Below are positions 2,065 to 36,901 of a stretch of 64,000 nucleotides of DNA, piece by piece. The notes under the pieces are model-generated. The model did not search any database. It saw only the letters and a program-made list of their open reading frames with translations, and was not told the DNA's origin. The first letter of the stretch is position 1; every line of letters starts with the position of its first letter. The position numbers and the translations under genes are program-made. Source of the stretch: an uncultured Pseudomonadales bacterium (GTDB lineage Bacteria > Patescibacteriota > Microgenomatia > UBA1400 > MFAQ01). The stretch lies in the NCBI GenBank assembly GCA_964513845.1, contig CAZENT010000001.1, positions 42,450 through 106,449 of the forward strand. The letters run 5' to 3'.

Positions 2065-2370
2065 TTACTGTTTGGACTCCAATAAATTCTCTGCCAACGG
2101 TTCGATTATTTTTTCTAAGAGTTCTTGGTCTGAAAAAGTGGAAGCCAATGATTGGAGAATTGCGGTTCTTTGTTCTTCGTTGGTTTCTTCCCAAGGATTA
2201 AATTTTAGATGCTTTTCCAGTTCTGTAATTGAACTAACCGCCTTATGTTTTAGATCTACGTTTACGCATTTTACATCAGCGGCTCTCTCCTTTCCGATGT
2301 AGAGTAGGTCTTCTTTGTTAACCACGAGCACTTCATCTCCTAATTTTGCTACCGGGTATAGTTCGTTCAT
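2065..2370 (-). CDS. Small (~101 aa) conserved partner protein, paralog of 4969..5274; candidate immunity/antidote-like partner
   Basis: ORF-track 2065..2382 with likely true ATG at 2370 (MNELYPVAKLGDEVLVVNK...). It lies 1 nt after the stop of the upstream 373-aa gene and is ~65% identical to the 4969..5274 product. Confidence 0.6.
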   Translation of the reverse strand: MNELYPVAKLGDEVLVVNKEDLLYIGKERAADVKCVNVDLKHKAVSSITELEKHLKFNPWEETNEEQRTAILQSLASTFSDQELLEKIIEPLAENLLESKQ

Positions 2371-2371
2371 T

Positions 2372-3493
2372 TTAATATTCAATTAATTTAATTAACGATT
2401 CGGGATGCGCTTCTTTAAATTTATTATATATTTTTTTAACCTCTTCTATTTCATCGTCATCGAGGTCATTATTTTTAGATATGTAAATGGCCTCTATATC
2501 CTCGAATTTAAGTTGTCCATGAAATTGGGCTTCGGTGTATGAAGCACCCCATGTCACTTTGCTTGATTTTTCTAGACTGGCAAGTATATTTTCAACATAC
2601 CCACTAATACGAAAGCTTGTGAAGTGTGGCTTTGAGGCTGGGGTTGGTGGCCATTCATCTTTGGGGCTAAGACTGTCTTGGAAAGCGATCGTTGTTTTTT
2701 GTAATGCGCGCTCCCTCTTTATCTTAACTGTAATTTTTCCGTATGCGTCTACTGAGTTTGGTGGGGGGATTTCACCATCGTAATTTATAACCCCATATTC
2801 ATTATTTGAAAAATAGCCGTATATTGGTCTGTTTTCTTTGTTCTCATCAACAACCTCATCGGGAATACCTTCTCCGCGATGTCCTGAAGAATAATCAACA
2901 CCCTTACGCCCATTAAATGCAAACATCAGCACCTCAGCTTGAGCTCTGTAACTCTGATTTAAACAACCATCACTATGATTTGTTTCAAATTGACTTTTGA
3001 ATCGACCATCTTCGTTCAACACTTTGTCGAGTACGAATACGCTTGTCGCTCTGAAAAAATTAGATTCACCTACAATCGCCTCAATCTTTTTTTGCAATTC
3101 TACTTTAAACTCTTCTACTGTCATTCTGGCATCCATAGCCGCTTCCTCATATAATTCAAGATGTTCCTTTTCTGCATTGATAATGTTTCTCCGCATTCTG
3201 TCCTTTATCTCTGGATTTGCTTCTAGGTTTATAGCTTCCCAGTCTTGAAAATATTTTTCAGTTACAGCGGAAGGAAATTCAGTTTTTTCGTGAATTGTTT
3301 CTTCTGAAACCAGTGATGTTTCGGGATCAGAAACTCTTGAAATCGCGGCACCCCCGAATCTAGATCGGAGTTTGGCGAGAATATCAGAACTCACATCCTT
3401 TATGGTTTTCTTTTTTGTTTCAAATGTTGGTGACATTTCCATGTATGCTTCTGCCATGCACTTTATTATTGCGGTTATATATATAAGAGTCAA
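2372..3493 (-). CDS. Hypothetical protein (373 aa) with conserved ~290-aa C-terminal domain shared with 3612..4964
   Basis: Long ORF. Its C-terminal region aligns by eye with the 450-aa paralog on shared motifs NFFRAT, GRFKSQFET, RPIYGYFS, YG.ITVK.KR.RAL.K, PPTPA.KPHFTS, YTEAQFHG and IKLIEY. Confidence 0.7.
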   Translation of the reverse strand: MTLIYITAIIKCMAEAYMEMSPTFETKKKTIKDVSSDILAKLRSRFGGAAISRVSDPETSLVSEETIHEKTEFPSAVTEKYFQDWEAINLEANPEIKDRMRRNIINAEKEHLELYEEAAMDARMTVEEFKVELQKKIEAIVGESNFFRATSVFVLDKVLNEDGRFKSQFETNHSDGCLNQSYRAQAEVLMFAFNGRKGVDYSSGHRGEGIPDEVVDENKENRPIYGYFSNNEYGVINYDGEIPPPNSVDAYGKITVKIKRERALQKTTIAFQDSLSPKDEWPPTPASKPHFTSFRISGYVENILASLEKSSKVTWGASYTEAQFHGQLKFEDIEAIYISKNNDLDDDEIEEVKKIYNKFKEAHPESLIKLIEY

Positions 3494-3611
3494 TAATCTG
3501 CATGATGGTGGAGTAGAAGATGCAATTAAGTAATTGATGAGAAAAAGATAAGAAATCTATTATCACTGATGTAAATTCCTCAATATTTTTAAAATAAATT
3601 ATATTGCTATA

Positions 3612-4964
3612 ATGACTTTTGTGACAGAAATATCAACGGAAGAACCGCCATTGTTTGAACTAGAAAAGGGAATGCCTTTGAAAGATTTTTCTGAAATAAT
3701 TGATAAAATCAAGCCAAAATTGGGACTTGAGAGTTCAACCAAATCTTCCAAACCCATATACCCTGAAATAAGGTTTGACGAAGAAGGATCTATGATAGAA
3801 CCGCCGTTGCTTGAACCAGAAAAAAGAACACGATTGAAAAAATTTTCTGATATTATCGAAAAAATCAAGCCAAAATTGAGACTTGAGAGTTCGGCTTCAC
3901 CTTTCGAAGAATCCATATACCCTGAAATAAAGTTTGACGAAGAAGGATCTATGATAGAACCGCCATTGTTTGAACTAGAAAAAAGAATACTATTGAAAGG
4001 ATTTTCTGCAATTTTAGAAAAAATCAAATCAAAATTGAGACTTGAAAGTTCACCTAAATCTGAGACAACTAGAAAATATTTCGAAGATTGGGATGCTCTA
4101 CACTTAGATGCTAACCCGGAAATAAAGGAAACAATGAGAAAAAATATTCTTATTGCTGAAAAACAACACCAAAAAATCTACGAACAAGCTGCTCGTGAGG
4201 CAGGCGTTAGCATTGAAGTATTTAAGAAAAAATTACAAGAAAAAGTTGAAAGGGCGGTTGAGAACTCTAATTTCTTTAGAGCAACAAAAATTAGTGTATT
4301 AGATAAAGTTCTCAATGGAGATGGTCGATTCAAAAGTCAATTTGAAACACATGATAGTGGTGGCTTTTTGAATCCATCTTTTAGAGCATTGGCAGAAATG
4401 AAAATGTTTGGTTTCAATATGCCACCAGGCGGTTTCAAATTTTCCACTGCGGGTTATCATGGGAGCAAAATTCCAGATAGCATTGTGCACGATAACTGTG
4501 AAAGAAGACCAATTTATGGATATTTTTCCGATAATGAACATGGAGAAATCAATGAACGTGGAACAAACCCCCCATCAAATAATTTAGTTCAATATGGCGA
4601 GATAACTGTAAAATTAAAAAGGGATCGGGCTTTAGAAAAAGCAACATTGAGTTTTCAAGACAGCCTTGATTATAAAGACTGTCCTCCAACACCAGCGATA
4701 AAACCACATTTTACGAGCCTAGAAATTGGTGATGCTTATTCTGATGTAATACTAGATAGAGTTGAAAATCCAGGTACAACGAAATGGGGGTCAGTATACA
4801 CCGAAGCTCAGTTTCATGGGGGGCTAACATTAGACGATATTGATGTAATTTATGTTTCTACCGGTAACAGACTATATGACGACCAGATCATAGAGGTCCG
4901 CGAGATATATAATAGATTTATTCAATCGCATCCCGATTCAGATATTAAATTAATTGAATATTAA
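3612..4964 (+). CDS. Hypothetical protein (450 aa): three N-terminal ~53-aa tandem repeats plus the conserved C-terminal domain shared with 2372..3493
   Basis: ATG at 3612 follows a TATAAT-like box at 3604-3609. Repeats EPPLFELEK...IYPEI(R/K)FDEEGSMI occur three times. The C-terminal domain is homologous to the 373-aa paralog. Confidence 0.7.
   Translation: MTFVTEISTEEPPLFELEKGMPLKDFSEIIDKIKPKLGLESSTKSSKPIYPEIRFDEEGSMIEPPLLEPEKRTRLKKFSDIIEKIKPKLRLESSASPFEESIYPEIKFDEEGSMIEPPLFELEKRILLKGFSAILEKIKSKLRLESSPKSETTRKYFEDWDALHLDANPEIKETMRKNILIAEKQHQKIYEQAAREAGVSIEVFKKKLQEKVERAVENSNFFRATKISVLDKVLNGDGRFKSQFETHDSGGFLNPSFRALAEMKMFGFNMPPGGFKFSTAGYHGSKIPDSIVHDNCERRPIYGYFSDNEHGEINERGTNPPSNNLVQYGEITVKLKRDRALEKATLSFQDSLDYKDCPPTPAIKPHFTSLEIGDAYSDVILDRVENPGTTKWGSVYTEAQFHGGLTLDDIDVIYVSTGNRLYDDQIIEVREIYNRFIQSHPDSDIKLIEY
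3642..4064 (+). repeat. Three tandem ~159-nt (53-codon) coding repeats within the 3612..4964 gene
   Basis: Near-identical DNA units begin gaaccgcc(a/g)ttg(t/c)ttgaac at 3642, 3801 and 3960. The third unit is truncated. The antisense ORF 3599..4027 is an artefact of this repeat. Confidence 0.85.
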
Positions 4965-4968
4965 AAAA

Positions 4969-5274
4969 ATGAACGAACTGTATCCAGTAGCAAAATTAGG
5001 AGATGAAGTGCTTGTGATAAACAAAGATGACATACCACTCATCGGAAAAGAGAACGCGGAAGACGTTAAATGTGTTAGTGTTGATTTAAAACATAAAAGA
5101 ATTGACCCTTTGGCGGCATTGGAAAATCATCTAAAATTTAATCCTTGGGAAGAAACAAGCGAGGAAGAAAGAAGCGCTATTCTTCAGTCTCTGGCAACGA
5201 TATTCCCTAATCAGGATATCTTAGAAAAAATTATTAAGCCCCTCGTCGGAAGCTTAGTTGATTCAAAAAAGTAA
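4969..5274 (+). CDS. Small (~101 aa) conserved partner protein, paralog of 2065..2370
   Basis: ORF-track 4954..5274 starts at TTG. The likely true ATG is at 4969 (MNELYPVAKLGDEVLVINK...), 4 nt after the stop of the 450-aa gene. Confidence 0.6.
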   Translation: MNELYPVAKLGDEVLVINKDDIPLIGKENAEDVKCVSVDLKHKRIDPLAALENHLKFNPWEETSEEERSAILQSLATIFPNQDILEKIIKPLVGSLVDSKK

Positions 5275-20675: not shown

Positions 20676-20990
20676 ACACTCCCGGGTGCTGGTGAGGAAC
20701 GCCCTGCCGCAAGGCAGGGAGGAAAGTCCGGACAGCTAAAAGATAGGGTGACCAGGGAAACCTGGTTCTTCTCGAGGTGACTCGAGAGGCGCGATAGGGC
20801 CACAGAGACGAATAAAGGTGAAACGCTCTTGGTTACAAGAGATGGTTTAGAAGTAACTCTAAACTAGTGGTAACCCGCCCTGCTGCAATCGACGAATTGG
20901 GATTAAGGTATCTTTTCCGTCCCAGAAGTCTCGAGCATTAGATAGATGTTCCTCCTAGACAGAATCCGGCTTACTATGACCCGGGGGTCC
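20676..20990 (+). ncRNA. rnpB: RNase P RNA (bacterial type A, reduced length)
   Basis: Universally conserved P4 strands GGGAGGAAAGTCCGGAC (20717-20733) and ACAGAATCCGGCTTAC (20959-20974). P1 pairs cccgggt (20681-20687) with acccggg (20979-20985). An AGGTGAAACG...GGTTACAAGAG region resembles the J11/12-P12 region. Confidence 0.8.
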
Positions 20991-24510: not shown

Positions 24511-26067
24511 TTAACTGGCAATTTCTGCTGCACGAGTTTCACGAATGACATTTACCTTGACTGTTCCAGGGAAAGTCATGGTGGATCTAATCTCATCGCG
24601 AATGGCTTGAGCGAGTATGGGTAGCTGATCATCGCCGGCCTTGCCAGGATTGACGATGACACGAATTTCACGACCGGCAGAAATAGCATAAGCATCTTCA
24701 ACTTCTGGATGTTTTCTGGCGATTTCTTCCAGCTGTCTAATTCTCTTGCCATATTCTTCGGTGTTTTCGTGACGAGCTCCTGGACGTGAGCCTGAGATGG
24801 CGTCGGAAATATAAACTAGCATAGACTCAGAAGAGCTGAACTCTTCATCTTCGTGATGCTGAGCAACACAGTCGATGACGGCTTGAGGCAGATTGTATTT
24901 CTTCAAAAAGTTAACACCAAGCTCAACATGGTTTCCTTCTCCCTCAATAACCTTGCCGATATCGTGTAAAAGACAACCTAGACGGATAGTGTCGATGTTG
25001 GCACCAACTTCGTTGCCGAGTTTAATACCAATTCTGGTTTCCTCAAGAGTGTGACTGATCATGTTTTGTCCATAGGAGGTGCGGAATTTGAAACGACCAA
25101 GGACATTGATGACATCCCTAGGCATGTTGTAAACACCAACAGCGTGACAAAGTTTTTGACCCTCTTGGAACATTAGCTGTTCAACGTCTCTTCTGGCTCT
25201 ATCGAAGTATTCTTCGATACGAGCTGGGTGAATACGACCGTCTTTAATTAATCGAATTAAGGTAACACGGGCAATTTCACGTCTGACTGGATCAAAACTA
25301 CTAAGCTTTACCTCATCTGGTGAGTCATCCATAGAAACATCACAACCGGAAACTTTTTCAAAAATACGAATGTTTCGTCCGTCTTTGCCAATGATTCTAC
25401 CTTTGGTTTCTTCGTCTGGGATTGGAACTGTAGAGATAGTGTACTCAGCAACGTAGTCTGTGGCACCGGCGCGCATTGAGTCGACCAGTATTTCTCGAGC
25501 AACATCTTCAGCTTCTATTTTGGCTTTTTCTTCAGTTTCTTTTATGATTCTAGCTATTTCCTGAGAAGAACCCTTTTCTACTTGAGCGAGAAGTTCTTTT
25601 TTGGCTTGCTCTGTGGTTAAGGAAGCTATTTTTTCAAGCTTTTTACCCATTGCCGTTTCTTGATCGGCTAGTTTTGCCTTGACTTCATCGGCGCCTTTTT
25701 GCTGGGCATCAAGCATAAGTTTTTGTTTTCTGGCTTGATCTTCAAGAGTTTGCAGTCCACGTTGTTTTTCGGCTAAAGCTTTTACTCTGACCTCAATGTC
25801 TTCAAGCTGGATACGAGTATCTTTGAGAGCCTGATCTTTTAGTTTGAAGGCTTCATCTTTGGCGGCAAGAATAATTTCTCTAGCCTGATTTTGAGCTTGG
25901 GCGGTGGCTTGAGCAATGATGGCTGAGGTATCTACGGAAGGAGCGGCAACGACTTTGGGTTCTTCTTTTTTGGCAACAACAGGTTCGACGGAAACTTTTT
26001 TGACAGCGGGAGCAGAGGCAGAAGAAGCCTTGAAAAGATTTGTTTTGAAAATTGATAGTAATGACAT
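24511..26067 (-). CDS. rny: Ribonuclease Y
   Basis: N-terminal TM/coiled coil, a KH domain, and an HD domain (LLHDIGK) in RNase Y order. Confidence 0.85.
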   Translation of the reverse strand: MSLLSIFKTNLFKASSASAPAVKKVSVEPVVAKKEEPKVVAAPSVDTSAIIAQATAQAQNQAREIILAAKDEAFKLKDQALKDTRIQLEDIEVRVKALAEKQRGLQTLEDQARKQKLMLDAQQKGADEVKAKLADQETAMGKKLEKIASLTTEQAKKELLAQVEKGSSQEIARIIKETEEKAKIEAEDVAREILVDSMRAGATDYVAEYTISTVPIPDEETKGRIIGKDGRNIRIFEKVSGCDVSMDDSPDEVKLSSFDPVRREIARVTLIRLIKDGRIHPARIEEYFDRARRDVEQLMFQEGQKLCHAVGVYNMPRDVINVLGRFKFRTSYGQNMISHTLEETRIGIKLGNEVGANIDTIRLGCLLHDIGKVIEGEGNHVELGVNFLKKYNLPQAVIDCVAQHHEDEEFSSSESMLVYISDAISGSRPGARHENTEEYGKRIRQLEEIARKHPEVEDAYAISAGREIRVIVNPGKAGDDQLPILAQAIRDEIRSTMTFPGTVKVNVIRETRAAEIAS

Positions 26068-26214
26068 CGGTTTATAAAAATATTAAACCTAGTCTAAGAA
26101 CAATCCGGAAACCACGCAAACTCAGCCGCAGAGCGACTGAAGTATTTTTATGTTTGTATAGCTTGTTTCGAACATTGCGTAATTTAGATTTACTCTTAGA
26201 TTAGTAACCATATT

Positions 26215-26691
26215 TTAGTCTTCAAGACACTCCACGTCAAATAGTTTATTGATAACTTGTGACCCAAACCCTCTTCCGTATAACTTTGAGGTGAGTTTAT
26301 ATTTGTCTAATTTCCGATATTTAAGGCTGTATTTTTTGACCGCTTCAACTTGTTTTTTGGTGTCTGCTTCCTCCAAGGCTAGACTAATTGTGTCTTTATC
26401 TAGCCTCATTTGACCTAATTTGAGACTTATGATTTTGGGGCCATAACACTTGTCAATTTGACGCCGAACGAAAGCTTGAGCAAGATAGAGATCATCCAAG
26501 TAACCACTCTTTTTTAGATCTATTAGAATGTCTGAGATTACACTGTTTGCTTGGTTAAAATTAAGCTTTTTGGCTCTTAAAAGAAGTTTTTGGCGAATTT
26601 TTTCTTCAAAATAGGGCCTTCGGCTTAGACAAAAGGCAGCATATTTGATCAGACTTGCCCGGACATCACTTGGTGATGGTTGCTCCGGCAT
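26215..26691 (-). CDS. recX: RecA regulator RecX
   Basis: RecX-like helical repeats immediately downstream of recA, overlapping it by 26 nt. Confidence 0.65.
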
Positions 26692-27721
26692 TTACTTTGG
26701 CAACGACTTCTTTTTTGATCTTTTCGATGAGCTCTGGCTTTTCGACTAGAACCGCTTTAGCAGCTTCTCTTCCTTGAGCAATAGTTTCTCCACCATATTT
26801 GAGGAAGGCGCCGGCTTTTTGGACAATCTCATAAGCAATGGCGGTATCCAAAAGATCTCCAATCTTACTAATTCCACCAACATTTAAGATATCGAACTCG
26901 GCCGTTCTAAAAGGAGAGGCAACTTTGTTTTTGACAATTTTGGCACGATGACGTGAGCCAATAATTTCTTCACCTTCTTGAATGTTGCCAATCTTGCGCA
27001 TATCGATACGAATAGAGGCATAGAATTTAAGTGCTTTTCCACCCGTGGTGACTTCCGGATTACCAAACATAACGCCGATTTTGTCGCGAAGCTGATTGGT
27101 GAAAATAACGATACATTTACTCTTAGAGATGGCGCCGGTAATCTTTCTGAGTGCCTGGCTCATGAGCCTAGCTTGCATACCCATGGAGGCATCACCCATT
27201 TCGCCTTCAATCTCGGCTTTGGGAACGAGAGCCGCGACTGAATCTATAACAACGACATCGACTCCGCCGGAACGAATAAGAGTTTCGGCGATTTCAAGAG
27301 CTTGTTCGCCATTGTCGGGCTGGGAAAGAAGAAGACTGTCGAGGTCGACACCGATGGACTTGGCTCTGGTAGGATCGACGGCGTGTTCGGCATCGATAAA
27401 AGCAGCAACACCGCCGGCTTTTTGGGCTTCGGAGATGACGTGAAGAGCAAGGGTTGTTTTTCCTGATGCTTCTGGGCCGTAGATTTCGATGATTCTACCT
27501 TTGGGAAAACCACCAACACCAAGAGCGAGATCAAGACTAATCGAACCGGAGGAAATTACCTGGATTTTCTCATTAATTTTGTCGGAGCCCATGCGCATAA
27601 TTGCACCCTCACCAAATTGTTTGGTGATTTGTTGCATGGCGATTTTGACAGCAGTTAAACGATCGTTGTTGTCACTAACTTGGACAACTTTTGCTTTTTC
27701 TTCTTTTGCTTTTTTAGGCAT
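26666..27721 (-). CDS. recA: Recombinase RecA
   Basis: Walker [14 protein letters not shown] and the conserved RecA core. Likely start is the internal ATG at 27721 (MPKKAKEE...). Confidence 0.9.
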
Positions 27722-27803
27722 GTTCAATAGTATTTTGCTAACACTAAAAGTCATTATATCCTTTCGGGTTATTTTTGCAATATTGATTGTTATAATAATT
27801 TTT

Positions 27804-28082
27804 ATGAAAGAATGTCAAAGCTGTACTCTTCCCTTGGGAAAAGATGATAACGGTCCAGTTGAAAATTTTGGTACGAATGCCGACGGATCGAAAAACGAAG
27901 AATATTGTATGTATTGTTTTCAAAATGGTAAGTTTGTGGATCCTGACACGACAAAAGAAATGATGACTGACAAGTTAACTGATTTTTATACTGATTCTGT
28001 GGGCATGCCTCTCGAAATGGCCAGAGAGCTTTCGATAACGAGAATTTCAAATTTAAATAGGTGGAGTAAAACAAGAAACTAA
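27804..28082 (+). CDS. Small zinc-ribbon domain protein (92 aa)
   Basis: [11 protein letters not shown]...[23 protein letters not shown] matches the CQSCGMP...FGTN.DGS...YC.YC family. The 5' part of ORF-track 27489..28082 is antisense to recA and is discarded. Confidence 0.55.
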
Positions 28083-28087
28083 AGGAT

Positions 28088-29383
28088 ATGGGCGAAGAAA
28101 ATAGTTTGGAAAAAGGTATAGAACAAAACAATCATGAAATTGTTGAGAATAAAGAGAAACTGGAAATAGAGCGAGCTATTGAACTGACAACTAAGCTTGT
28201 CGAAATACTTTATGATGGTGAAGTTCCCGATACTGTACGTAAAAGATTGGATTCTGTAAAGAGTAAGATTTCGGTTTCTTCGACTGAACTTGAAGAATAT
28301 TATGTAGAACAGGGTGGTTCTGCTTTATCCGCGGGAAGTGTGAATGGCGTCTATTCTAGAAGTTTAGATCAGATAATATTACGAGAAAATACAACGCTTA
28401 ATACAAAAATTCATGAAATTTGTCATTTAATTTCTGCCGATCCTGTGACAAATGAAGCGGGGTTAAGAACAGCGAAGGGTGAGGTTAATCAGATAGGGAT
28501 CAATCTGGATGAAGCGATTACTCTTTTTGTCTCTACCTATGCGGAAAAGGGACTTAACCCAAACGATTCTCGTCATTTTCTAATAGTTAACGATGAAATT
28601 TCGAAGATGAAAAATCTTGCAGGAAGTTATTCCGGATCGGCTGAAACTTTTGGATATATTGTGAGTGGTCATACCAGATGGGGAAGGGTTGATCTTAAAG
28701 ACGGTAGATTAATAAACATATTGCCGGAAATTTTTAAAAATTATTTCGACGGTCACCAATCTGGATTAAGGAATTGCTTTGATTCTAGTTTTGAAAAGGG
28801 TTACTTTGATGATTTTGTAAAAAAAGTGGGAGAAACAAGCGAAATTGATTCTGCAAAAGTAATTTCAATTATTGAGATATATTCACATGATATATTTTCT
28901 GGAAATTTTATCGATAAGGAAACAAAGGACGCTGTTACAAAATTTATTGAGGCTATTAAGAATAAAGCGGTTACTAATTATGTGTATCCGGAAAATAGTC
29001 CAGCGTTGTGTAGAATTACTCGAAAACTTGAAATTAACGATAAAACTATCGAGCCCGAAATAGAGCTTAATATTGGCTTGAGAAGTCTCTATGATTCTTT
29101 CGAGAAAAGAAAAAACTATTTAGGTATAAAACAATTTGAGGCGTGGATAATTTGGCAAAGTATTGTTTATGCTGAAGCCATGAGGGGTGTAACTTTATCG
29201 AATAATGAATTTATTGCCAACGAGCGAATGAAAGAAATATTGATAAATAATTATTCAAGTCAAATGACGGCAATTTCTGACATGGCGAGAGGATTATTGG
29301 GAGTAAAAATTCCTCAGGGCGTGAGTGATGATATCGTTTCAGAAAGTAGTAAGAGGAAGTTAATCAAAGGCGTGGTAAAATAG
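28088..29383 (+). CDS. Hypothetical protein (431 aa) with HExxH motif; AT-rich
   Basis: HEICH at residues ~109-113. No TM. Markedly lower GC than its surroundings. Confidence 0.5.
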   Translation: MGEENSLEKGIEQNNHEIVENKEKLEIERAIELTTKLVEILYDGEVPDTVRKRLDSVKSKISVSSTELEEYYVEQGGSALSAGSVNGVYSRSLDQIILRENTTLNTKIHEICHLISADPVTNEAGLRTAKGEVNQIGINLDEAITLFVSTYAEKGLNPNDSRHFLIVNDEISKMKNLAGSYSGSAETFGYIVSGHTRWGRVDLKDGRLINILPEIFKNYFDGHQSGLRNCFDSSFEKGYFDDFVKKVGETSEIDSAKVISIIEIYSHDIFSGNFIDKETKDAVTKFIEAIKNKAVTNYVYPENSPALCRITRKLEINDKTIEPEIELNIGLRSLYDSFEKRKNYLGIKQFEAWIIWQSIVYAEAMRGVTLSNNEFIANERMKEILINNYSSQMTAISDMARGLLGVKIPQGVSDDIVSESSKRKLIKGVVK

Positions 29384-29504
29384 GCATGTTCGTTTCGGGG
29401 TATAAGGGCTTGCTCGTCCTTCCTTCGATAATATTCATTATCGTCTGGTTATAGTACCTCTATCCCGAAATACGATTTGTACTTTTTAAAATTTGAAAGT
29501 ATTT

Positions 29505-29575
29505 CGGGGTATAGTATAACGGCAGTATGCGCGCATGGGGTGCGCGCGATCTCAGTTCAATTCTGAGTACCCCGA
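29505..29575 (+). tRNA. tRNA-Pro (anticodon GGG)
   Basis: Acceptor stem cggggta/taccccg, discriminator A. Anticodon stem cgcgc/gcgcg with loop aTGGGgt. T-arm ctcag-ttcaatt-ctgag. D-stem is weak (GTAT/GTAT with two G-U pairs). 71 nt, no encoded CCA. Confidence 0.6.
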
Positions 29576-29579
29576 CTAA

Positions 29580-30908
29580 GTGGATAAATTACGAAAGTAT
29601 GTTTTTTTTGTTTTGTTTTTTTTGGCAGTAGTAATTTTTTTGATTCATTATTCGGTTTCCGGACAAGCTGTCTATGGGGATGGCATTGGCTATTATTCTC
29701 ACCTGCATAGCTGGGTGATTGACGGCGACTGGAACTATACCAATGAGTACAAACATATTTATGATTGGGAACATAATAATTTCGATACCGGAGTTGAGTC
29801 ATCTGCAATACAAATAGTTTCGACAACCAAAGAGGGGGAAGCGGAAAACTTTTATGGTACTGGAGTGGCGGTGTTACTTTTGCCTTTTTATTTGATGGCT
29901 CATTTTATTTCTATCTTGGCCAATCTTTTTGGGGCGGGAATTTCCGTACAGGGATATGGAGACGCGTATCAAATACTGACAGGAATTGGGGCTGTTTTTT
30001 ACGCAGTCTGGGGAGTGTATTTTCTGAATAAAATGATTGATATTGTTATCCGAGATAACAAAATTAGCTTAATAAGTAGTGTGACGATTTTCTTGTCAAC
30101 CAGCTTGCTTTATTATGGTAGTTTTGACGTAATTAATTCTCACTTTGCTTCTTTCTTTTTGACCGTGGTTTTCTTTTATTTATTTTTTTCGAGAAAAAAC
30201 AATCTGCTTTTGGGGTTGGTGGCCGGACTTATCACATTAAATAGAGTTCAAGACTCTGTAGTGATATTGATTTGGCTTATCGATTTTTTACGAAATAAAA
30301 GGCCATTAATTACTGCAAAAAACTTCTTGATCGGATATGTTTTTGCTTTAATTCCGCTTTTCTTTCATTGGGGTAGTGTGATTGGAAATCCACTCAATCA
30401 TCCATATTTGCGAGGGCTTACTGAGAAAATTCAAGGTGGACAAAGCACTGACATTTTTGGAAGTCTGTTTAATCCAGTTACCGGATTGTTTTTTCGGACT
30501 CCCCTACTTTTGGTTTTGTTCTTGTATTTTTTGTGTTTAATTGTTAATTATTATAGATTGCCACGTCACTTCGCTCCTCGCAATGACAAGATTTATTTTG
30601 TATATCCATTTATATTCTTTTTAATGCAGTTTGTGATTATTACTCTTCAAGGCGGATGGGCGGCAGCTGCTTATGGAGGAAGAATGTATATTTCTTCTTT
30701 GGTGTTTTTTGGATTAGTGTTGGGAAAAATGCTCACCTGGATGAGTAAAAAAAATCATAGATTGGTCTATGTTTTTGTGATGACATTTATAGTAATAAAC
30801 TTTGTTTCTATGGCGATATTTATTTTGAGAGATAAGGGGGCAGAGGGTGGATCTCATGGCACTGAACAGAGAACAATCCAAAGACTTAATAAAATATTCC
30901 GAAAATAA
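29580..30908 (+). CDS. Polytopic membrane protein, GT-C (ArnT/PMT-like) glycosyltransferase-like, with an in-frame family B repeat insertion
   Basis: About 12 TM helices. The first periplasmic loop contains YGDGIGYY, DE/DG-x-YY-like. The peptide YRLPRHFAPRNDK is encoded by the element at 30552. Confidence 0.45.
   Translation: MDKLRKYVFFVLFFLAVVIFLIHYSVSGQAVYGDGIGYYSHLHSWVIDGDWNYTNEYKHIYDWEHNNFDTGVESSAIQIVSTTKEGEAENFYGTGVAVLLLPFYLMAHFISILANLFGAGISVQGYGDAYQILTGIGAVFYAVWGVYFLNKMIDIVIRDNKISLISSVTIFLSTSLLYYGSFDVINSHFASFFLTVVFFYLFFSRKNNLLLGLVAGLITLNRVQDSVVILIWLIDFLRNKRPLITAKNFLIGYVFALIPLFFHWGSVIGNPLNHPYLRGLTEKIQGGQSTDIFGSLFNPVTGLFFRTPLLLVLFLYFLCLIVNYYRLPRHFAPRNDKIYFVYPFIFFLMQFVIITLQGGWAAAAYGGRMYISSLVFFGLVLGKMLTWMSKKNHRLVYVFVMTFIVINFVSMAIFILRDKGAEGGSHGTEQRTIQRLNKIFRK
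30552..30588 (+). repeat. Short palindromic repeat element, family B, copy 2 (in frame within 29580..30908)
   Basis: TATAGATTGCCACGTCACTTCGCTCCTCGCAATGACA. Confidence 0.75.
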
Positions 30909-30931
30909 ATATAACTGTTTCCGGTGTTTGA

Positions 30932-31648
30932 TTATTTGAAGACGACTGATTCTTTTTCGGGAAGCGTACCTTCAAATACAATACTGCCATTTTCGACAAC
31001 TAGTTTTTTGGCAGAAAATCCTTTTTGCTTATTAACTAGATCCTGAACAAAAGACTCGATCCTGGGCTTGTTTGAAGATAGTATTTTTGAGGAAACAGGG
31101 AGTCTTCCAACCTCAAGCGAAGTGACATCGAAAGAAACTTTGTTATCGATAATGCTAGCTGTGCCTTTGGCGTAAAAGGGCATTTTAACTTTGGGAATTT
31201 GATATTCCAAAAGAGCCTTTTCAATATCTCCCGTTGAGTACCCAAGGGCTTTGGCATAATCAGTGACAAGCGACATATCAACCATACCAGTAATCTCCAT
31301 AGTGTCATTGAGATTAATCAATAGCTGAAGGTTGGAAAATGGATAATATTTCCAAGGACGATTGTTGATGATGGCGGTTGCTTCGGTACTGTCGAAGGAT
31401 AACTTGAGCTCTCTTCGTCCTTCCAAGACGTAACTTTCGGTGACTGAAGTATATTGAGGAAGCTCAACAATGACGACTCTAGATTTTTCTTGGGCCTTGA
31501 TAGAGTCTTCCGGTGTAATCTTGACACCCAGATCTTTTGGTTTGTTAGTACCCAAAATAGTTGAAAGACCCGGAACGAAACCAGCCAGTCCGGCAAAGAA
31601 AACAGCAATTACAATGAGAAACAAAATAATCCTGAGTATTCCTTTCAT
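30932..31648 (-). CDS. Hypothetical membrane-anchored protein (238 aa)
   Basis: N-terminal TM helix. No known motif. Confidence 0.45.
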   Translation of the reverse strand: MKGILRIILFLIVIAVFFAGLAGFVPGLSTILGTNKPKDLGVKITPEDSIKAQEKSRVVIVELPQYTSVTESYVLEGRRELKLSFDSTEATAIINNRPWKYYPFSNLQLLINLNDTMEITGMVDMSLVTDYAKALGYSTGDIEKALLEYQIPKVKMPFYAKGTASIIDNKVSFDVTSLEVGRLPVSSKILSSNKPRIESFVQDLVNKQKGFSAKKLVVENGSIVFEGTLPEKESVVFK

Positions 31649-31681
31649 AATATGGAAAACTAGTAATAAAGAATCTTACAC

Positions 31682-32839
31682 TTAATTCTTTTCCGGGAAA
31701 AGAGAACTAAGAAATGCTCCAAGGCCAAGACAGAATGAGGCGAAAGCAATTATCCAGCCAATGACAGGGATAATTGAAACGATTCCGAGGAGTAGAACAC
31801 CTAGGGCGACTTGCCCATATAGTGAAGTGTCTTTTTTCTGAATTACCTTTTCCATAAATAATTTTCCGTACAAAGCTGATGGATAAAGCGAGGCAATGAT
31901 CAAAGCAATAATATAAACAAACATGGCCACGAACGCAAAAGGCATGCCGATAACGGTAATTAAGAGAATGAAAAAGGCTACAGGGGCGACAATTAATGTC
32001 GCAAAACCGATAAGCCCAGTAATGAGAGGTTTTCGGACAATTTGCGCGATCCTTTTTTCGGTGTTTTTGCGATCAAAATAGATCAGAGCTGAACCAAGAA
32101 GAATGAAAGATAAAATACTGACTAGGGTTTTTACAAATATGGCTTTTCCGGTAGCTTTGATCGTTTGATTTTGCATTTCTGATTTCGAAGGAGTTTCAAT
32201 ATCATGTCTGACTACGCTTCCTTTGATATTTTTTTCATCGATTGAGGGAGTGGCGGTTTTTTCCACGTAGTAGTCAAGATTGCCACCGATTTTGCCGGTT
32301 TCGATAATGGATAAATTGGTACCGGAGACTGTGGCGTTTCTTAGGAGAGAGCCGGTGATATTGACGGTTTCACCTGCTCCAAGCAGGTCTCTACCCATTG
32401 AGCCCCCAAGATTAACATTCTGAACTCCAAAGAAGACATCACCCTTAACTTGAGATTTTGGACCCAGAACCAACGTTTGAGAAGCAACGGTAATGTTTCG
32501 AGTGACTTGACCGTTGATTTCGATATTCATAGCCGCGGCTCGAATGTCGCCATCAACATTGCCGGTAACCTTGATACTTTGACCAACACAAGCAATGTCT
32601 CCTTTGATGTTGCCGTTGATGACGATATCTCGGCCGGCGCAGTAAAGATCGCCGTTGATATCGGAGTTTATGGTGAGGGTTGAACCGGAAACGAAAGCTG
32701 CTTCATCGATTTTCTTTTCTTCGGGAAGAACTAGGGTGTCCCCTGACTGAAAATAAACGGCTCTTGCAGGAGAAAGACTAAGAAAAACAAATAAAAATGC
32801 AGGTAGAATCCAAGCAAAAAGCTTTGTTATTATTTTCAT
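31682..32839 (-). CDS. Bactofilin-like (polymer-forming cytoskeletal, beta-helix) protein with signal peptide and C-terminal TM region
   Basis: Repeated ...ING.IKGDI..VG.SIKVTGNV.GDI... units are typical of the bactofilin/DUF583 beta-helix. The C-terminus has ~3 TM helices. Confidence 0.55.
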   Translation of the reverse strand: MKIITKLFAWILPAFLFVFLSLSPARAVYFQSGDTLVLPEEKKIDEAAFVSGSTLTINSDINGDLYCAGRDIVINGNIKGDIACVGQSIKVTGNVDGDIRAAAMNIEINGQVTRNITVASQTLVLGPKSQVKGDVFFGVQNVNLGGSMGRDLLGAGETVNITGSLLRNATVSGTNLSIIETGKIGGNLDYYVEKTATPSIDEKNIKGSVVRHDIETPSKSEMQNQTIKATGKAIFVKTLVSILSFILLGSALIYFDRKNTEKRIAQIVRKPLITGLIGFATLIVAPVAFFILLITVIGMPFAFVAMFVYIIALIIASLYPSALYGKLFMEKVIQKKDTSLYGQVALGVLLLGIVSIIPVIGWIIAFASFCLGLGAFLSSLFPEKN

Positions 32840-32957
32840 ACTGATTAAGGTATAGCAGAAAAATGGTAACTTGCCAAATTAAATAGATTGAAAAGGACCC
32901 GTTCGTGAACTATCATCTACTAAGATTGAGAGTAATTAATAATTGAAATCAAAATAG

Positions 32958-33899
32958 ATGAAAATATTAGTGACTGGCGGTGCAGGATTTTTGGGTTCGC
33001 ACTTGTGCAAAAGACTTGTGGATGAAGGAAATGAAGTAATTTGTGTAGATAATTTTTACACCGGAAGGAAAAAGAACATCGAAAAATTGATGGATTCGGG
33101 AAAGTTTTCAATTATCGAGCATGACATCGTTGAACCATTGAAAATTACCGGATTGGATAGAATATATAACTTGGCATGCCCGGCATCTCCACCTGCCTAT
33201 CAGAAAGACCCTATCTATACCTGGAGAACCTCTTTGATTGGGACGATGAATATGTTGGAGTTAGCCGTGAAAAACAATAATTGTAGAATGTTGCAGTCAT
33301 CGACCTCAGAAGTGTATGGCGACCCATTAGAACACCCTCAAAAAGAAAGTTACTGGGGTAATGTGAACCCAATTGGTATCCGATCGTGTTATGACGAGGG
33401 GAAAAGAGCGGCGGAAACTTTGATTATGGATTACCATCGAAAATACAACCTGCCGGTGAGAGTTGTGCGAATTTTTAATACTTACGGACCAAACATGGAT
33501 CCAAAAGATGGCAGGGTGGTTTCTAACTTCATTGTTCAGGCACTGACCAATCAAGACATCACTATATATGGTGATGGTTCTCAAACAAGAAGCTTCCAGT
33601 ATGTTGATGATCTTATTAACGCAATGATTTTGATGATGGAGAATCAAATTGATTTCGTGGGACCAGTGAACACAGGTAATCCTGGCGAGTTTACCGTAAA
33701 AGAACTGGCCGAGATGATACTGAAAATGATTCCAGAGTCTACAAGTAAAATCGTGTATCGAAATATGCCGGCAGATGATCCGAAAATTCGAAAACCGGAT
33801 GGGTCTTTGGCCAAGGAAAAATTAAACTGGGAGCCAAAAATTAACTTGGAGGATGGTTTGGTGCCGACGATAGCTTATTTCAGATCTGAAGTTGGATAA
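32958..33899 (+). CDS. NAD-dependent UDP-glucuronate decarboxylase-like (UDP-xylose synthase family SDR)
   Basis: [20 protein letters not shown] Rossmann motif, the YxxxK region, and strong overall similarity to UXS/ArnA-decarboxylase-type enzymes. Confidence 0.8.
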
Positions 33900-34816
33900 A
33901 AATTTGGCTGACCATAGTCGAATATTTTGATTGGGAAAATTTCTTTTTTAATTAATTGAGTATCTTGATAAGTGAGTCTTAAGATCTCTCCCAAACGAGT
34001 TTCTTCTGACCACATTTGATCAAAAACCAGATTGCCGAGAGAGTAGTAAATCGGTTTGCCCTGATAAATTTCTTCGGTTTGGACCCAGTGAGGATGATGT
34101 CCAACAACCAAATCAGCACCGGAGTCAATCGCAAGATGAGCCAAGTACACTTGTCGAGAGGTTGGGTTTTGCTGATACTCAGCACCCCAGTGAAAATTGA
34201 TAAGAACCAAGTCGGCTGATTGAGTACTTTCGGAGATTTGTTCTATCATTTCTTTTTCGTCTAATTCGGGTAGATCGGTAAAGGCAAGCAGGGCAATTTT
34301 GGTATTCTTTAATATATTAAATTCGGGTTTTCCGAGACCAAGGGGTGTAATGCTGTTCGATTTTAGAAGATCAATGGTTTCATCGACGCCTTTTTTCCCC
34401 TGATTGTTGATGTGATTGTTGGCTAGTGAAGCATAATCAACACCAGCATATACCAAGCCAAAAATATTTTTTGGATCAGCACAAAAAATCATACCGCTAT
34501 CTGTGGGGCGACAATCGGAAATAAAGGGTGATTCTAAATTGATTACCGCCAGGTCAGCTTCGGATAACAAAGAGGCAATGTTTTTGAATGGCCAAGTAGG
34601 GTCAGCAAATTTTTGAATTCTGGTATTAACTGAGCGACCAAGCATGACATCACCGGTAAAAACAATGGTAAAAGTACTCCCTTGATCAAGTGTAACTAGA
34701 TCCGGAAGATGACTGGAAATTGGAAGAACTTTGCGATTTGTATTTGGTGAAACGAGAAAAATTCCTGCCAAAAGACCAATCTCAAAAAGAATTAGGATTT
34801 TTATTGGTCGAATCAT
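33875..34816 (-). CDS. CapA-family metallophosphoesterase (poly-gamma-glutamate capsule biosynthesis CapA-like)
   Basis: N-terminal TM, then FTGDVMLGR and NLESPF motifs typical of CapA/YwtB. Confidence 0.6.
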
Positions 34817-34843
34817 TTAGTCATATTTTACTCCATATAGAAA

Positions 34844-34862
34844 CCTCCCCATTACGGGGAGG
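34844..34862 (-). terminator. Rho-independent terminator hairpin
   Basis: cctcccc-attac-ggggagg. On the minus strand it is followed by TTTCTAT. Confidence 0.45.
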
Positions 34863-34868
34863 CGTGCA

Positions 34869-35222
34869 CTAGACTGAGAAAATAATACTTGGAACACAAA
34901 TGATGTCATGGTCAATATATGTATCGAAGAACGACCATGTGTGGAGAACATCGACGATTTTGAGAAGTGTTTCTCGATTGATGTACTGAGGATCATAATA
35001 GACATAAATGGTGGAGTGCGGGTTGGTTAGGGTTCCGCCACTATTGACGTCCATTTCTGATGGAGAAGAAACAGTCTTGTTTCCTGAAAAGATGACGGAA
35101 AGTTTAAAACTTGATTGATGCAAGTCTGTTGAAGGTATTACCTTCTTAATCTGTTCGAAAAAATTATTTAGAGGTTTTTCCCCAATATTTGGGATATAAG
35201 GTAAGGCAATCTTGAGATCCAT
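34869..35222 (-). CDS. Hypothetical protein (117 aa)
   Basis: ATG at 35222 (MDLKIALPYIP...) is preceded by AAGGAGGAAAA SD. The upstream part of the ORF-track entry is discarded. Confidence 0.45.
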   Translation of the reverse strand: MDLKIALPYIPNIGEKPLNNFFEQIKKVIPSTDLHQSSFKLSVIFSGNKTVSSPSEMDVNSGGTLTNPHSTIYVYYDPQYINRETLLKIVDVLHTWSFFDTYIDHDIICVPSIIFSV

Positions 35223-35261
35223 TTTTCCTCCTTGGGAAAGTGCGAATGGCATATTATAACA

Positions 35262-35286
35262 AAAACCCCGGAACACCGGGGTTTTT
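35262..35286. terminator. Bidirectional rho-independent terminator
   Basis: aaaaa-ccccgg-aaca-ccgggg-ttttt. Confidence 0.55.
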
Positions 35287-35351
35287 GAATAGATTGCTTT
35301 GGTTCGAGTACATATCGCGCAATGTCGGGAGGTAGGCAGAAAGAGAGAATG

Positions 35352-36386
35352 TTAAAATTGCCAGACCTTTTTGAAAGGGTTTTTGCAGGGGTTACCTGAG
35401 GCAAGCTCGACAATTCCTTCATCCAAATCAACTGCGAAACCAAAAGTAGTTTCGGAGTCTTTACCATGACGACAGACACTATTATCGTCCGGTAAATTAT
35501 CAGGACCGTGATCTTTGAGAAACGACTGGGCTATTTTGAAAGTGATGGGGGTATTGATGTTTGAGATAAGTTTGTTTATCGATGCCAGTCTTTGGATAGA
35601 GCTCGTGTAATGCGGATGGCCTTCAAAGGGAAGCATTTTGGCCGAACAGTAGTGATTGCTGTGAGTGAGAATCCCTTTTGTGGGAAAAATATAATCGAAA
35701 CTGGTCGCCGAGCCTTCGATACTGACAGATTGATTTGGGGAAGTAATAATATTGTTGTAGGATGAGGCCCTTTCCGGGTGAGTGGCTGTCTTAACAGCTT
35801 CATCAAAGGTTTTTGCTAACAAGATAGCTCGAGCAATAATCGCTCTGGGAATGCCAACTCGTGTGTCTGTTGGAGTAACGGCATTTCCGGACAGAACAAT
35901 TTTGGAGTTGTTTACACCGACGCTGGCCATGAAACCGGCGATACCAACAGTATACATTTGACTGCCATCGTCGAAATTCCATTCGACCGCTGTAAGGACG
36001 TCGTAGAAACAGTGAGGCAAATCGTTATTGTGGGCGACAAGGGTATGGACACTAGCTGGCGAAAGTGTAATGATATCAGTGCAAGCTTTTGGATTGAAGC
36101 TGTCGGAATAAAATTCTTCGATGGCGAGAGCGAAAAGTTCAGTGAAGTCGATACCAGAGCCTTGGGCAACACCTTTTATCTCTTCAATAATTTCAGGAAA
36201 GTGTTTTTCAGTTGGCTCGATGAAGAGCTTTGTCTGATCAAGACAGTCCTGCCAGGAGAGCTTTGCTGGTGGATCATTTTTACAAAGATCGCGATACTTA
36301 AAAATCAATTCTTTAAAAGCCAGGCCGATTTGTTCACCACACTCAAAATGAGTACCGGAAACTTTGATAAATGGCATTTGTTTCAT
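35352..36386 (-). CDS. Peptidase C45 family (acyl-CoA:6-APA acyltransferase-like) hydrolase
   Basis: N-terminal SGTHFECGEQIG resembles the C45 autoproteolytic N-terminus (G-[ST]-x-[FY]-E-x-G). Length ~340 aa. Confidence 0.5.
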   Translation of the reverse strand: MKQMPFIKVSGTHFECGEQIGLAFKELIFKYRDLCKNDPPAKLSWQDCLDQTKLFIEPTEKHFPEIIEEIKGVAQGSGIDFTELFALAIEEFYSDSFNPKACTDIITLSPASVHTLVAHNNDLPHCFYDVLTAVEWNFDDGSQMYTVGIAGFMASVGVNNSKIVLSGNAVTPTDTRVGIPRAIIARAILLAKTFDEAVKTATHPERASSYNNIITSPNQSVSIEGSATSFDYIFPTKGILTHSNHYCSAKMLPFEGHPHYTSSIQRLASINKLISNINTPITFKIAQSFLKDHGPDNLPDDNSVCRHGKDSETTFGFAVDLDEGIVELASGNPCKNPFKKVWQF

Positions 36387-36421
36387 AGACGACTATTTCA
36401 GTTCCAGAAACAGGTCAAATC

Positions 36422-36901
36422 TTAACGTTTTGGAGATTGTTTCTTGGCACGAGCACGACCACCTTGGCCTGATTTTCTGGTTTCTTTCATACGAGAGTCA
36501 CGAGTAAGAAAACCGCCATCACGCATAAGCTTTTTGAATTTCTCAGGATCGGCTTTCATGAGAGCACGACCAATACCGTTCATAATTGCTTCAGCTTGGC
36601 CCATGATACCGCTCCCGGCAACCTTGATACTGCCAGTGTATTGACCTAAGACATCTGCGACAACAAAAGGAGAGTGGATCATCTTTTTGATGGTTTCACC
36701 TTTGAAATAGACAGATAAGGGTTTGCCATTGATGACGAGTTCTTGTTTGCCTGGCCAGATACGAACGCGGGCGATGGCAGTCTTGCGACGGCCAACAGCG
36801 GCGAAGTATTCTTTGGGCATAGCGAGAGTACCCTTTTTGACAGGAGTTGTTTTGACTGGCTTAACAGCAACTTTGGATTTTTTGGTTAGTTTTTGTGCCA
36901 T
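36422..36901 (-). CDS. rpsI: 30S ribosomal protein S9 (N-terminally extended)
   Basis: Conserved C-terminus ...GGGFLTRDSRMKERKSGQGGRARAKKQSPKR, downstream of rplM. Confidence 0.9.
   Translation of the reverse strand: MAQKLTKKSKVAVKPVKTTPVKKGTLAMPKEYFAAVGRRKTAIARVRIWPGKQELVINGKPLSVYFKGETIKKMIHSPFVVADVLGQYTGSIKVAGSGIMGQAEAIMNGIGRALMKADPEKFKKLMRDGGFLTRDSRMKETRKSGQGGRARAKKQSPKR

Follow-up and report, generated by a model that had tools for sequence, protein, structure and literature searches.

Islands that enter bacterial genomes through tyrosine integrases place atypical, lineage-specific genes next to a tRNA, leave an empty site in relatives and have partial tRNA copies nearby. Bacterial intergenic DNA is also known to carry repeats such as ERIC/IRU (enterobacterial repetitive intergenic consensus/intergenic repeat unit), Correia-type miniature inverted-repeat transposable elements (MITEs), REP/BIME (repetitive extragenic palindrome/bacterial interspersed mosaic element) and the IS200/IS605-derived PATEs (palindrome-associated transposable elements). 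The locus studied here lies in a stretch of 64,000 nucleotides (nt) of contig CAZENT010000001.1 (positions 42,450 to 106,449; the whole stretch is called the window), which comes from an uncultivated Microgenomates-like bacterium of the Candidate Phyla Radiation (CPR). It likewise has an AT-rich two-gene islet, here between recA and a tRNA-Pro(GGG), with tRNA fragments beside it, and an earlier note had taken the whole for an integrated element or its remnant. Our comparison makes it likely that two unrelated features lie side by side in a variable recA/tRNA-Pro(GGG) spot, namely a gained operon and an older rearrangement of the tRNA spacer. The spacer contains the remains of a structured repeat element of about 110 nt. 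The features of islet and spacer are the following, in window coordinates.

27787 to 29366, plus strand: about 1.58 kb of DNA specific to the islet and missing from related species; bounds good to a few bases
27804 to 28082, plus strand: gene for a 92-amino-acid (aa) zinc-ribbon protein (PF12674, Zn_ribbon_2), first of a two-gene operon
28088 to 29383, plus strand: gene for a 431-aa HExxH protein, with HEICH at 28412 to 28426 and E142 at 28511 to 28513
28200 to 29340, plus strand: divergent-allele block, about 72-75% identical in nucleotides to strain L001, with flanks mostly 92-100% identical (sliding identity)
29372 to 29404, plus strand: ancestral tRNA leader (29372 to 29395) and a copy of tRNA positions 1-9 (29396 to 29404), holding the first copy of a repeated 12-mer; homologous to L089 (cgtggtaaaattatcaggttcgTTTCGGGGTATAG) and L178
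29403 to 29453, plus strand: decayed copy of the repeat element, TA followed by AGGGCTTGCTCG…CTGGTTATA, aligned to the full-length copy L001:4210-4318
29454 to 29473, plus strand: remainder of the tRNA-start copy and 5' arm of a hairpin, comprising GTA (tRNA positions 10-12), CCTC and an inverted leader/tRNA start (TATCCCGAAATAC)
29474 to 29504, plus strand: hairpin loop and current leader of the functional tRNA; the 3' arm of the hairpin begins at 29499
29505 to 29576, plus strand: functional tRNA-Pro(GGG), found by ARAGORN and by RF00005 (51.6 bits on 231 nt)

Among the strains and contigs compared (designated here by L numbers), only the conspecific L001, L002, L003, L216 and L219 have both islet genes at the same place, and near-identical contigs are known from five sequencing runs. 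In L089, L090 and L091, a spacer of 108 nt separates recA from a tRNA-Pro(GGG) identical at 72/72 positions, and the islet genes are absent. Both genes are missing as well from L088, L178 and L182, where recA and the tRNA lie within about 100-450 nt of each other, so that the recA-tRNA-Pro site is empty in all six. Nucleotide identity of the recA region to the window is 83%, 79%, about 77% and about 75% in the related species that lack the islet, and a RecA search of 185,000 GTDB species genomes found no relative more than 68% identical. Only one locus from this search was informative, that of a distant Daviesbacteria genome (L020), which also has recA and tRNA-Pro(GGG) as neighbours, with a different, unrelated open reading frame (ORF) of 344 aa between them, which indicates that the slot is old and variable.

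The tRNA fragments follow another distribution. The layout of direct copy, element, inverted copy and hairpin is common to the window, L001, L088, L178, L182 and L201, and three of these (L088, L178 and L182) have it without the islet. The fragments are therefore separate from the islet and older than it. Hence the fragment repeats, which the earlier note had counted as the signature of an integrated element, do not serve as one here: both copies lie on the tRNA side, and they are found in relatives that have no islet.

The bounds of the islet could be placed by setting the locus against the DNA between recA and the tRNA in L178, L088 and L089. On the left, homology stops after GCAATATTGA (27777-27786), and on the right it restarts at about AGGCGTGGTAAAAT (29367 onward), so that the old tRNA leader (cgtggtaaaat…) supplies the final codons and the stop of the 431-aa gene. 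The two ORFs and their motifs are as the earlier note described them. The 92-aa protein matches PF12674 with 75.3 bits (cut-off 22.5) over profile positions 2-80 of 81, including the CQSC…CMYC pairs, and the 431-aa ORF starts 5 nt after the zinc-ribbon ORF, with AGGA 4 nt ahead of its ATG. The low GC content claimed for these genes was also borne out. The islet has 35.1% GC compared with 41.9% for the window, which is within the lowest 1.6% of equal-sized windows, and the 431-aa gene has the lowest GC among 51 long ORFs, with a third-position GC (GC3) of 0.275. This is unusual and not unique, because AT content is just as high in a patch at about 2.3-5 kb, and the gene downstream is also low in GC. 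The patch (2300-5000, GC 0.34-0.355) contains the ORFs 2372-3493 (minus strand, 373 aa) and 3612-4964 (plus strand, 450 aa, GC3 0.255), for which only sub-threshold matches to DUF3626 were found; within the second, the minus-strand sequence TTTCAGGGTATA is repeated (3757 and 3916).

At the tRNA, the features that the earlier note had read from the letters were all confirmed. The tRNA-Pro(GGG) is real, its 72 nt are identical in L001, L088 and L089, and its D-stem pairs (G-U, U-A, A-U and U-G) include the two G-U pairs pointed out before. The 64 kb contain two exact copies of the 12-mer TTTCGGGGTATA, at 29393-29404 and 29502-29513, and no others; 0.28 matches would be expected by chance even with one mismatch allowed. 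The second copy overlaps the first 9 nt of the tRNA. The first copy represents the original leader and tRNA start, because the tRNA of the empty site has the same leader ahead of it. When the element is removed, the spacer reads as this leader, CGGGGTATAGTA (tRNA positions 1-12), CCTC and TA(Y)CCCGAAAUAC. Its end is an inverted copy of the 5' region, since it is the reverse complement of the current leader and tRNA start and not of the trailer. A second tRNA-like stretch had been proposed at 29449-29461. The stretch is present, and only its GTA (positions 10-12) comes from the tRNA, the rest being the 3' end of the element (GGTTATA). Within the element copy of the window, 58 nt are deleted between two TCATTATCG repeats of 9 nt, which fuses both hairpins of the element; correspondingly, L001 has 58 extra nt in the middle of the spacer.

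The hairpin ahead of the tRNA is likewise as reported, with arms (29464-29473 and 29499-29508) that are exactly complementary. They extend to 16 nt (29458-29473 and 29499-29514) at 88% complementarity, and the predicted fold has a free energy (dG) of -18 kcal/mol and a z-score of -3.7. In L001 the hairpin has a 14-bp stem and a 5-nt loop (dG -21.6 kcal/mol, z -7.0). The distal pairs vary between loci and stay complementary, being UAC/GUA in the window, AAUG/CAUU in L001, AAAG/CUUU in L088, ACG/CGU in L178 and AAC/GUU in L201. An intrinsic terminator was considered and rejected, as there is no T-run after the hairpin and a terminator scan was blank there. A promoter in the new leader was rejected too, the only candidate being a weak 9/12 match at 29486-29515 that is not above shuffled expectation.

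Two observations on the tRNA site may be added. The window has the motif TTTGTAC(A/T)TTTTAA ahead of the functional tRNA, within its leader (29476-29491), and L001 has it in the leader of the upstream pseudo-copy (4171-4193), which suggests an exchange between the two direct copies. Moreover, Rfam cmscan missed the tRNA-Pro in inputs of 3.5 kb or more (window, L001 and L088) and found it in 231 nt. We read this as a filter artefact, and Rfam negatives from long inputs need care.

Taken together, the two-gene operon (about 27787-29366) would have been gained in the lineage of this species, probably through horizontal transfer and recombination and not through an integrase. The 121-nt spacer would have been rearranged earlier, and this state is shared with operon-less relatives. 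From its composition we infer three steps. First, the leader and about the first 12 nt of the tRNA may have been duplicated, giving one direct and one inverted copy. The element of about 110 nt would then have inserted at the TA of the redundant copy. In the window strain, 58 nt of the element would finally have been lost via recombination between the 9-nt repeats. The second tRNA-like stretch, as well as a cloverleaf-like fold of the spacer, would be by-products, and the 10-bp hairpin would be the inverted copy paired with the real tRNA leader and 5' end. The L089 site is clean, which may be the ancestral state or may have come about when the two direct copies recombined.

Several points weigh against this account. 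No phylogeny roots the comparison, and four deletions, or one in the common ancestor of the relatives, are formally possible. At the bounds of the islet there is neither a target duplication nor any other sign by which a mechanism of insertion could be recognised. The order of duplication and insertion is deduced from the layout, and the same layout of direct copy, element, inverted copy and tRNA recurs at the tRNA-Arg of L124 and the tRNA-Pro(CGG) of L201, which could mean that insertion of the element itself makes the duplications. Finally, the compensatory changes in the hairpin could reflect selection, or they could come from gene conversion between the palindrome arms.

The element found in the spacer belongs to a large family. 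A pattern taken from the L001 copy (AGAGCTTGCTCG, 30-45 nt, CTGCGCTTCC) was scanned over metagenome contigs and matched at least 120 of them; three were GC-rich chance matches, leaving at least 117. The element is about 105-113 nt long and consists of TA followed by AGAGCTTGCTCG, a long hairpin, CTGCGCTTCCTCTTATA and a second hairpin ending in …TATA, after which the flanks are unrelated. A covariance model of it (R1) scored the L001 copy with 102 bits and the L088 copies with 105 and 96 bits. On the window copy it gave 22 bits (E 0.019), and no other copy was found in the 64 kb. In aligned copies, 93.5% of the cells are paired compared with at most 51% when the partners are slid. Double changes occur at 13 of 21 pairs, and the observed values were reached in 0 of 500 shuffles. 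An alternative pairing of TAAGAG with CUCUUA was rejected, since it is broken in copies with CUCAUA and no compensation is seen.

Copies are found in intergenic DNA in both orientations, with no orientation bias relative to genes, so a role as a 5'-UTR (untranslated region) regulator was discarded. A tRNA-specific element was discarded as well: 24 of 101 copies lie near tRNAs, which are of many kinds and in both orientations, about as scarce intergenic space would give. The element was not found in viral contigs. Rfam gave no match at gathering score for 14 loci, and the canonical copy obtained at E <=10 only a 12-bit chance match. A text search of the literature for the element motifs and for CPR repeats returned no paper describing it.

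That the element has moved is indicated by L088, whose copy 1 lies between CGTGG-TAA and TAA-AATAGG, with a duplicated TA(A), at a site that reads CGTGGTAAAAT without interruption in the window, L089 and L178. The copy at the tRNA site is flanked by TA(TA). Target duplication together with insertion polymorphism was seen at the two sites that could be checked. The element lacks terminal inverted repeats, its ends TAAGAGCTTGCTCG… and …CTGGWTATA not being inverted copies, and the 8-nt pair TATAAGAG/CTCTTATA bounds only the first ~80 nt or so. In a few cases (L163 and L155) it lies in a hairpin loop; apart from these, the flanks were no more complementary than controls, so that insertion into palindromes is not general.

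Partial tRNA copies beside an intact gene flank the element at the tRNA-Arg of L124, the tRNA-Pro(CGG) of L201, and in L126, L132 and L182. In L124 it lies between direct and inverted copies of the leader and about the first 21 nt of tRNA-Arg. The L132 element stands ahead of a copy of the 3' two-thirds of tRNA-Pro(CGG), and in L182 (6230-6500, minus strand) it interrupts a second tRNA-Pro copy at the TA of the D-loop; the final 59 nt of this copy have remained identical.

An explanation that competes with mobile DNA is that the element is a multi-copy small RNA gene or an RNA- or protein-binding module, and that its copy at tRNA-Pro serves or served expression or processing of the tRNA. We regard this as quite possible, at somewhat less than even chances. 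The stems covary, and the sequences of loops and junctions do not vary, the invariance of the two motifs being partly imposed by the search pattern. Copies within one locus are 37-79% identical in variable columns and keep their hairpins, which speaks for an old and constrained element and against a recent burst; with the missing terminal inverted repeats, this makes it more like a constrained RNA than like a recent MITE burst. Pairs of G-U exceed those of A-C (46 to 22), which favours one strand. At the orthologous tRNA-Pro site, element copies of different species share 84-96% identity, compared with 74-83% for the recA regions of these species, and neither a transposase nor another recurrent neighbour was found within 2.5 kb of the copies. 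The insertion polymorphism at orthologous sites with TA(A) duplicated speaks against this explanation, as do the missing orientation bias and the lack of a specific gene or tRNA partner. In addition, the window strain tolerates the 58-nt deletion and L089 has no copy at tRNA-Pro at all.

A bolder proposal is that the element represents a new class of structured nucleic-acid element of the CPR, either a functional multi-copy small RNA or a mobile element with an unnamed mechanism. It would prefer hairpin loops or TA sites and leave a direct and an inverted duplication at tRNA starts while keeping the tRNA intact, and the resulting hairpin would be functional, for example in pre-tRNA processing or insulation. 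As a whole we consider this rather unlikely.

For the islet, the alternative to a gain is that the operon is ancestral at this locus and that the related species have lost it by deletion; low GC would then reflect weak constraint or a codon usage of its own. Deletion is common in reduced genomes, and the ORF at the same slot in Daviesbacteria L020 shows that this position can house genes over long periods. On the other hand, the operon is absent from all four related lineages sampled, with a continuous recA-tRNA spacer sequence of about 100-150 nt in each. Its gene family is extremely sparse and has its other members in unrelated contexts, which transfer fits better than vertical descent. An ancestral operon is therefore unlikely in our view.

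Less probable still, and indeed very unlikely, is the reading of the earlier note, by which the islet genes are cargo or remnant of an integrase-type element in tRNA-Pro and the 12-nt copy is a surviving attachment (att) repeat. Parts of it stand: the DNA is lineage-specific, compositionally atypical and adjacent to a tRNA, relatives have empty sites, and an exact 12-nt direct repeat is improbable by chance. What fails is the connection of these parts. Both 12-mers (29393 and 29502) lie downstream of the genes and none is found at the recA-side bound at about 27787, and the duplication occurs without the genes in L088, L178 and L182. Moreover, the repeat copies the tRNA 5' end and not the usual 3' end. 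No integrase or recombinase was found among the annotated neighbours within about 7-10 kb on either side of the islet, and the 431-aa protein has no phage or plasmid homologues. An 11-nt repeat, TAGGCATGTTC (27715-27725 and 29381-29391), was rejected as att, because it lies outside both islet bounds, because 11-mers are expected in 2 kb by chance, and because its right-hand copy is part of the ancestral leader and present in the islet-less L088.

To the idea that the spacer encodes a functional tRNA-like RNA (a 73-nt cloverleaf at 29396-29468, for example a decoy or processing signal for the tRNA) we give next to no weight: its minimum-free-energy structure does have a four-way junction and a stem of 7 bp that resembles an acceptor stem (dG -22 kcal/mol, z -3.0), but RF00005 gives no match there even at E 10 on 231 nt, ARAGORN and RF00005 find only 29505-29576, L003 folds otherwise, the 'anticodon arm' of L001 is 58 nt longer, and the sequence is accounted for as a deletion derivative of the element, in which the 58-nt deletion fused two hairpins so that the fold appears accidental.

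We also obtained insights into the protein encoded by the second islet gene. Word-indexed searches of 5.8 billion proteins returned, besides the protein itself, no more than an allele with 71% identity and a single distant homologue, and an exhaustive HMMER scan of 1.84 billion representatives yielded 18 proteins, mostly of 400-480 aa and 19-30% identical. H109, E110, H113 and E142 are invariant in 17 aligned homologues, as are P47, T145 and Y219, while P301-E302 and W356 are near-invariant. The family signature is HExxH…E (NEAxT), which is of the gluzincin type. In gluzincins, the third zinc ligand is a glutamate on a helix about 20-35 residues after HExxH (up to about 70 in some families). 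E142 lies within helix 135-154, 29 residues past H113, and its ligand role is suggested by this position only. An AlphaFold model built from the family alignment is confident (mean per-residue confidence, pLDDT, 83; predicted template-modelling score, pTM, 0.78) and has a thermolysin/M1-like fold, the fold of gluzincin catalytic domains. Profile searches of Pfam, NCBIfam, PADLOC and PHROGs gave no match, and neither did searches of PDB sequences and of the viral structures in BFVD or tblastn against phages and plasmids. No conserved neighbours were found around the distant homologues, which lie in unrelated contexts.

On the basis of the signature, the confident model and the absence of a matching known family, the soluble 431-aa protein is predicted to be a gluzincin-type zinc metallopeptidase of a small, unannotated family. 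H109 and H113 together with E142 would bind zinc, and E110 would be the catalytic base. Conservation of the motif and the predicted fold thus support the suggestion of the earlier note that the protein is metalloprotease-like, and we infer peptidase activity from them. Compared with the described gluzincins (clan MA(E): thermolysin M4, M1 aminopeptidases/LTA4H, M9 and M30), it has no Pfam, NCBIfam or PDB sequence match, its N-terminal helix is long, and its helical/beta C-terminal half is distinct from theirs. It carries no signal peptide or propeptide, and a zinc-ribbon gene is its partner only in this species.

The 431-aa gene is present in two forms. The zinc-ribbon gene and the first 36 codons of the 431-aa gene are identical in the window and in L001, and the zinc-ribbon gene is 100% identical in both allele backgrounds. 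The two 431-aa alleles share 71% amino acid identity, with a synonymous divergence (dS) of 0.86 and a ratio of nonsynonymous to synonymous divergence (dN/dS) of 0.22, which indicates that both are functional, old and under purifying selection. Over five samples, allele class A was found in four runs and class B in two. The block is a recombined-in or balanced cassette and not a product of decay; two old alleles would have been swapped by recombination inside identical flanks within the population. A diversity-generating retroelement was rejected as the source of the divergence, because the changes span the whole gene with a dS of 0.86 and because there is no reverse transcriptase among the annotated neighbours, no formal test having been made. 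The protein hence defines a sparse gluzincin-like family with two deeply diverged alleles in one population, a pattern that is often tied to conflict or recognition functions.

The islet is surrounded by conserved genes, the nearest of which are the following.

26666 to 27721, minus strand: recA (PF00154, E 7.5e-131), conserved left neighbour, divergent from islet transcription
29580 to 30908, plus strand: membrane protein of 442 aa related to PMT_2-type glycosyltransferases, conserved right neighbour; start codon uncertain

The recX-recA arrangement is syntenic in all relatives. Synteny in relatives also holds for the right neighbour, for which 117 homologues were found, some with PF13231; the nearest named one is 62% identical and comes from Candidatus Collierbacteria. 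Over about 7-10 kb per side the flanking genes are housekeeping genes, namely miaA, miaB, HU, RNase Y, recX, recA, the glycosyltransferase, a bactofilin, an epimerase and ribosomal proteins. At 20681-20989 the window contains an RNase P RNA of the bacterial type (class A), with 105 bits just over the gathering score of 100.

Further differences between strains were observed around the locus. From 25200 to 34700, window and L001 form a mosaic in which blocks of 100% identity alternate with others of 83-95%, the pattern that recombination within a population would give. A second strain-variable islet of about 1.7 kb (34733-36422), between a PGA_cap-like gene and rpsI, is missing from L001; it contains ORFs of 344 aa (35352-36386, minus strand; PF03417 AAT, an Ntn-hydrolase-like acyltransferase, E 4.6e-13) and of 135 aa without a match. 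L003, otherwise 99% identical, has a 57-nt insertion (2525-2590) right after the tRNA 3' end compared with window 29577-29585. It includes a terminator-like hairpin (ATTGCCC…GGGCAAT, then TTTTT) and alters the predicted N-terminus of the glycosyltransferase (456 aa compared with 442). Downstream of the tRNA-Pro of L088 (4266-4440) are two units of about 87 nt, each with a terminal GAGTACCCCGAC, which adds copies of the tRNA 3' end; small duplications therefore accumulate on the 3' side of the tRNA too.

Overall, our data show how a tRNA, AT-rich genes and tRNA fragments can come together through two independent processes, and that prediction of islands can be misled by this in reduced and poorly annotated genomes. 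The islet itself is ordinary, and an undescribed structured repeat among partial tRNA duplications is more noteworthy. Widespread, with strong covariation and absent from Rfam, the element is probably our most useful result. Cataloguing it would improve the annotation of intergenic DNA in the CPR. Moreover, a novel small RNA or a novel type of non-autonomous mobile element may come to light in this way, and the repeated occurrence of partial tRNA duplications would be accounted for.

When the locus is set against known systems, it differs from tyrosine-integrase islands in that no integrase accompanies the islet and the genes are not enclosed by the repeats. What has been duplicated is the 5' end of the tRNA together with its leader, with an inverted copy besides, whereas in those islands it is the 3' end, and the duplication here predates the islet. 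With partial tRNA duplicates (pseudogene fragments) it shares a directly repeated tRNA start that is still preceded by the original leader, and L182 and L132 have larger tRNA-Pro copies split by the element. In contrast to such fragments, only positions 1-12 survive here, followed by the inverted copy of leader and start, which pairs and covaries with the 5' end of the functional gene.

The element was compared with ERIC/IRU, Correia elements, REP/BIME and PATEs by the general features of these families and not by reference sequences. Like them, it is non-coding, about 110 nt long, multi-copy and intergenic in either orientation. As in repeats of the MITE/REP type, it is TA-flanked, present or absent at orthologous sites, hairpin-forming and sometimes located in the loop of a pre-existing hairpin, and both of its hairpins are topped by (A/G)TAAY…RTTAY, which resembles paired binding sites. 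It differs from them in having no terminal inverted repeats, no linked transposase or RAYT (REP-associated tyrosine transposase) and no Rfam family. Its copies within a genome are, moreover, strongly diverged with compensatory stems, while AGAGCTTGCTCG and CTGCGCTTCCTCTTATA are fixed. Fixed junction motifs together with compensatory stems are more typical of structured RNAs.

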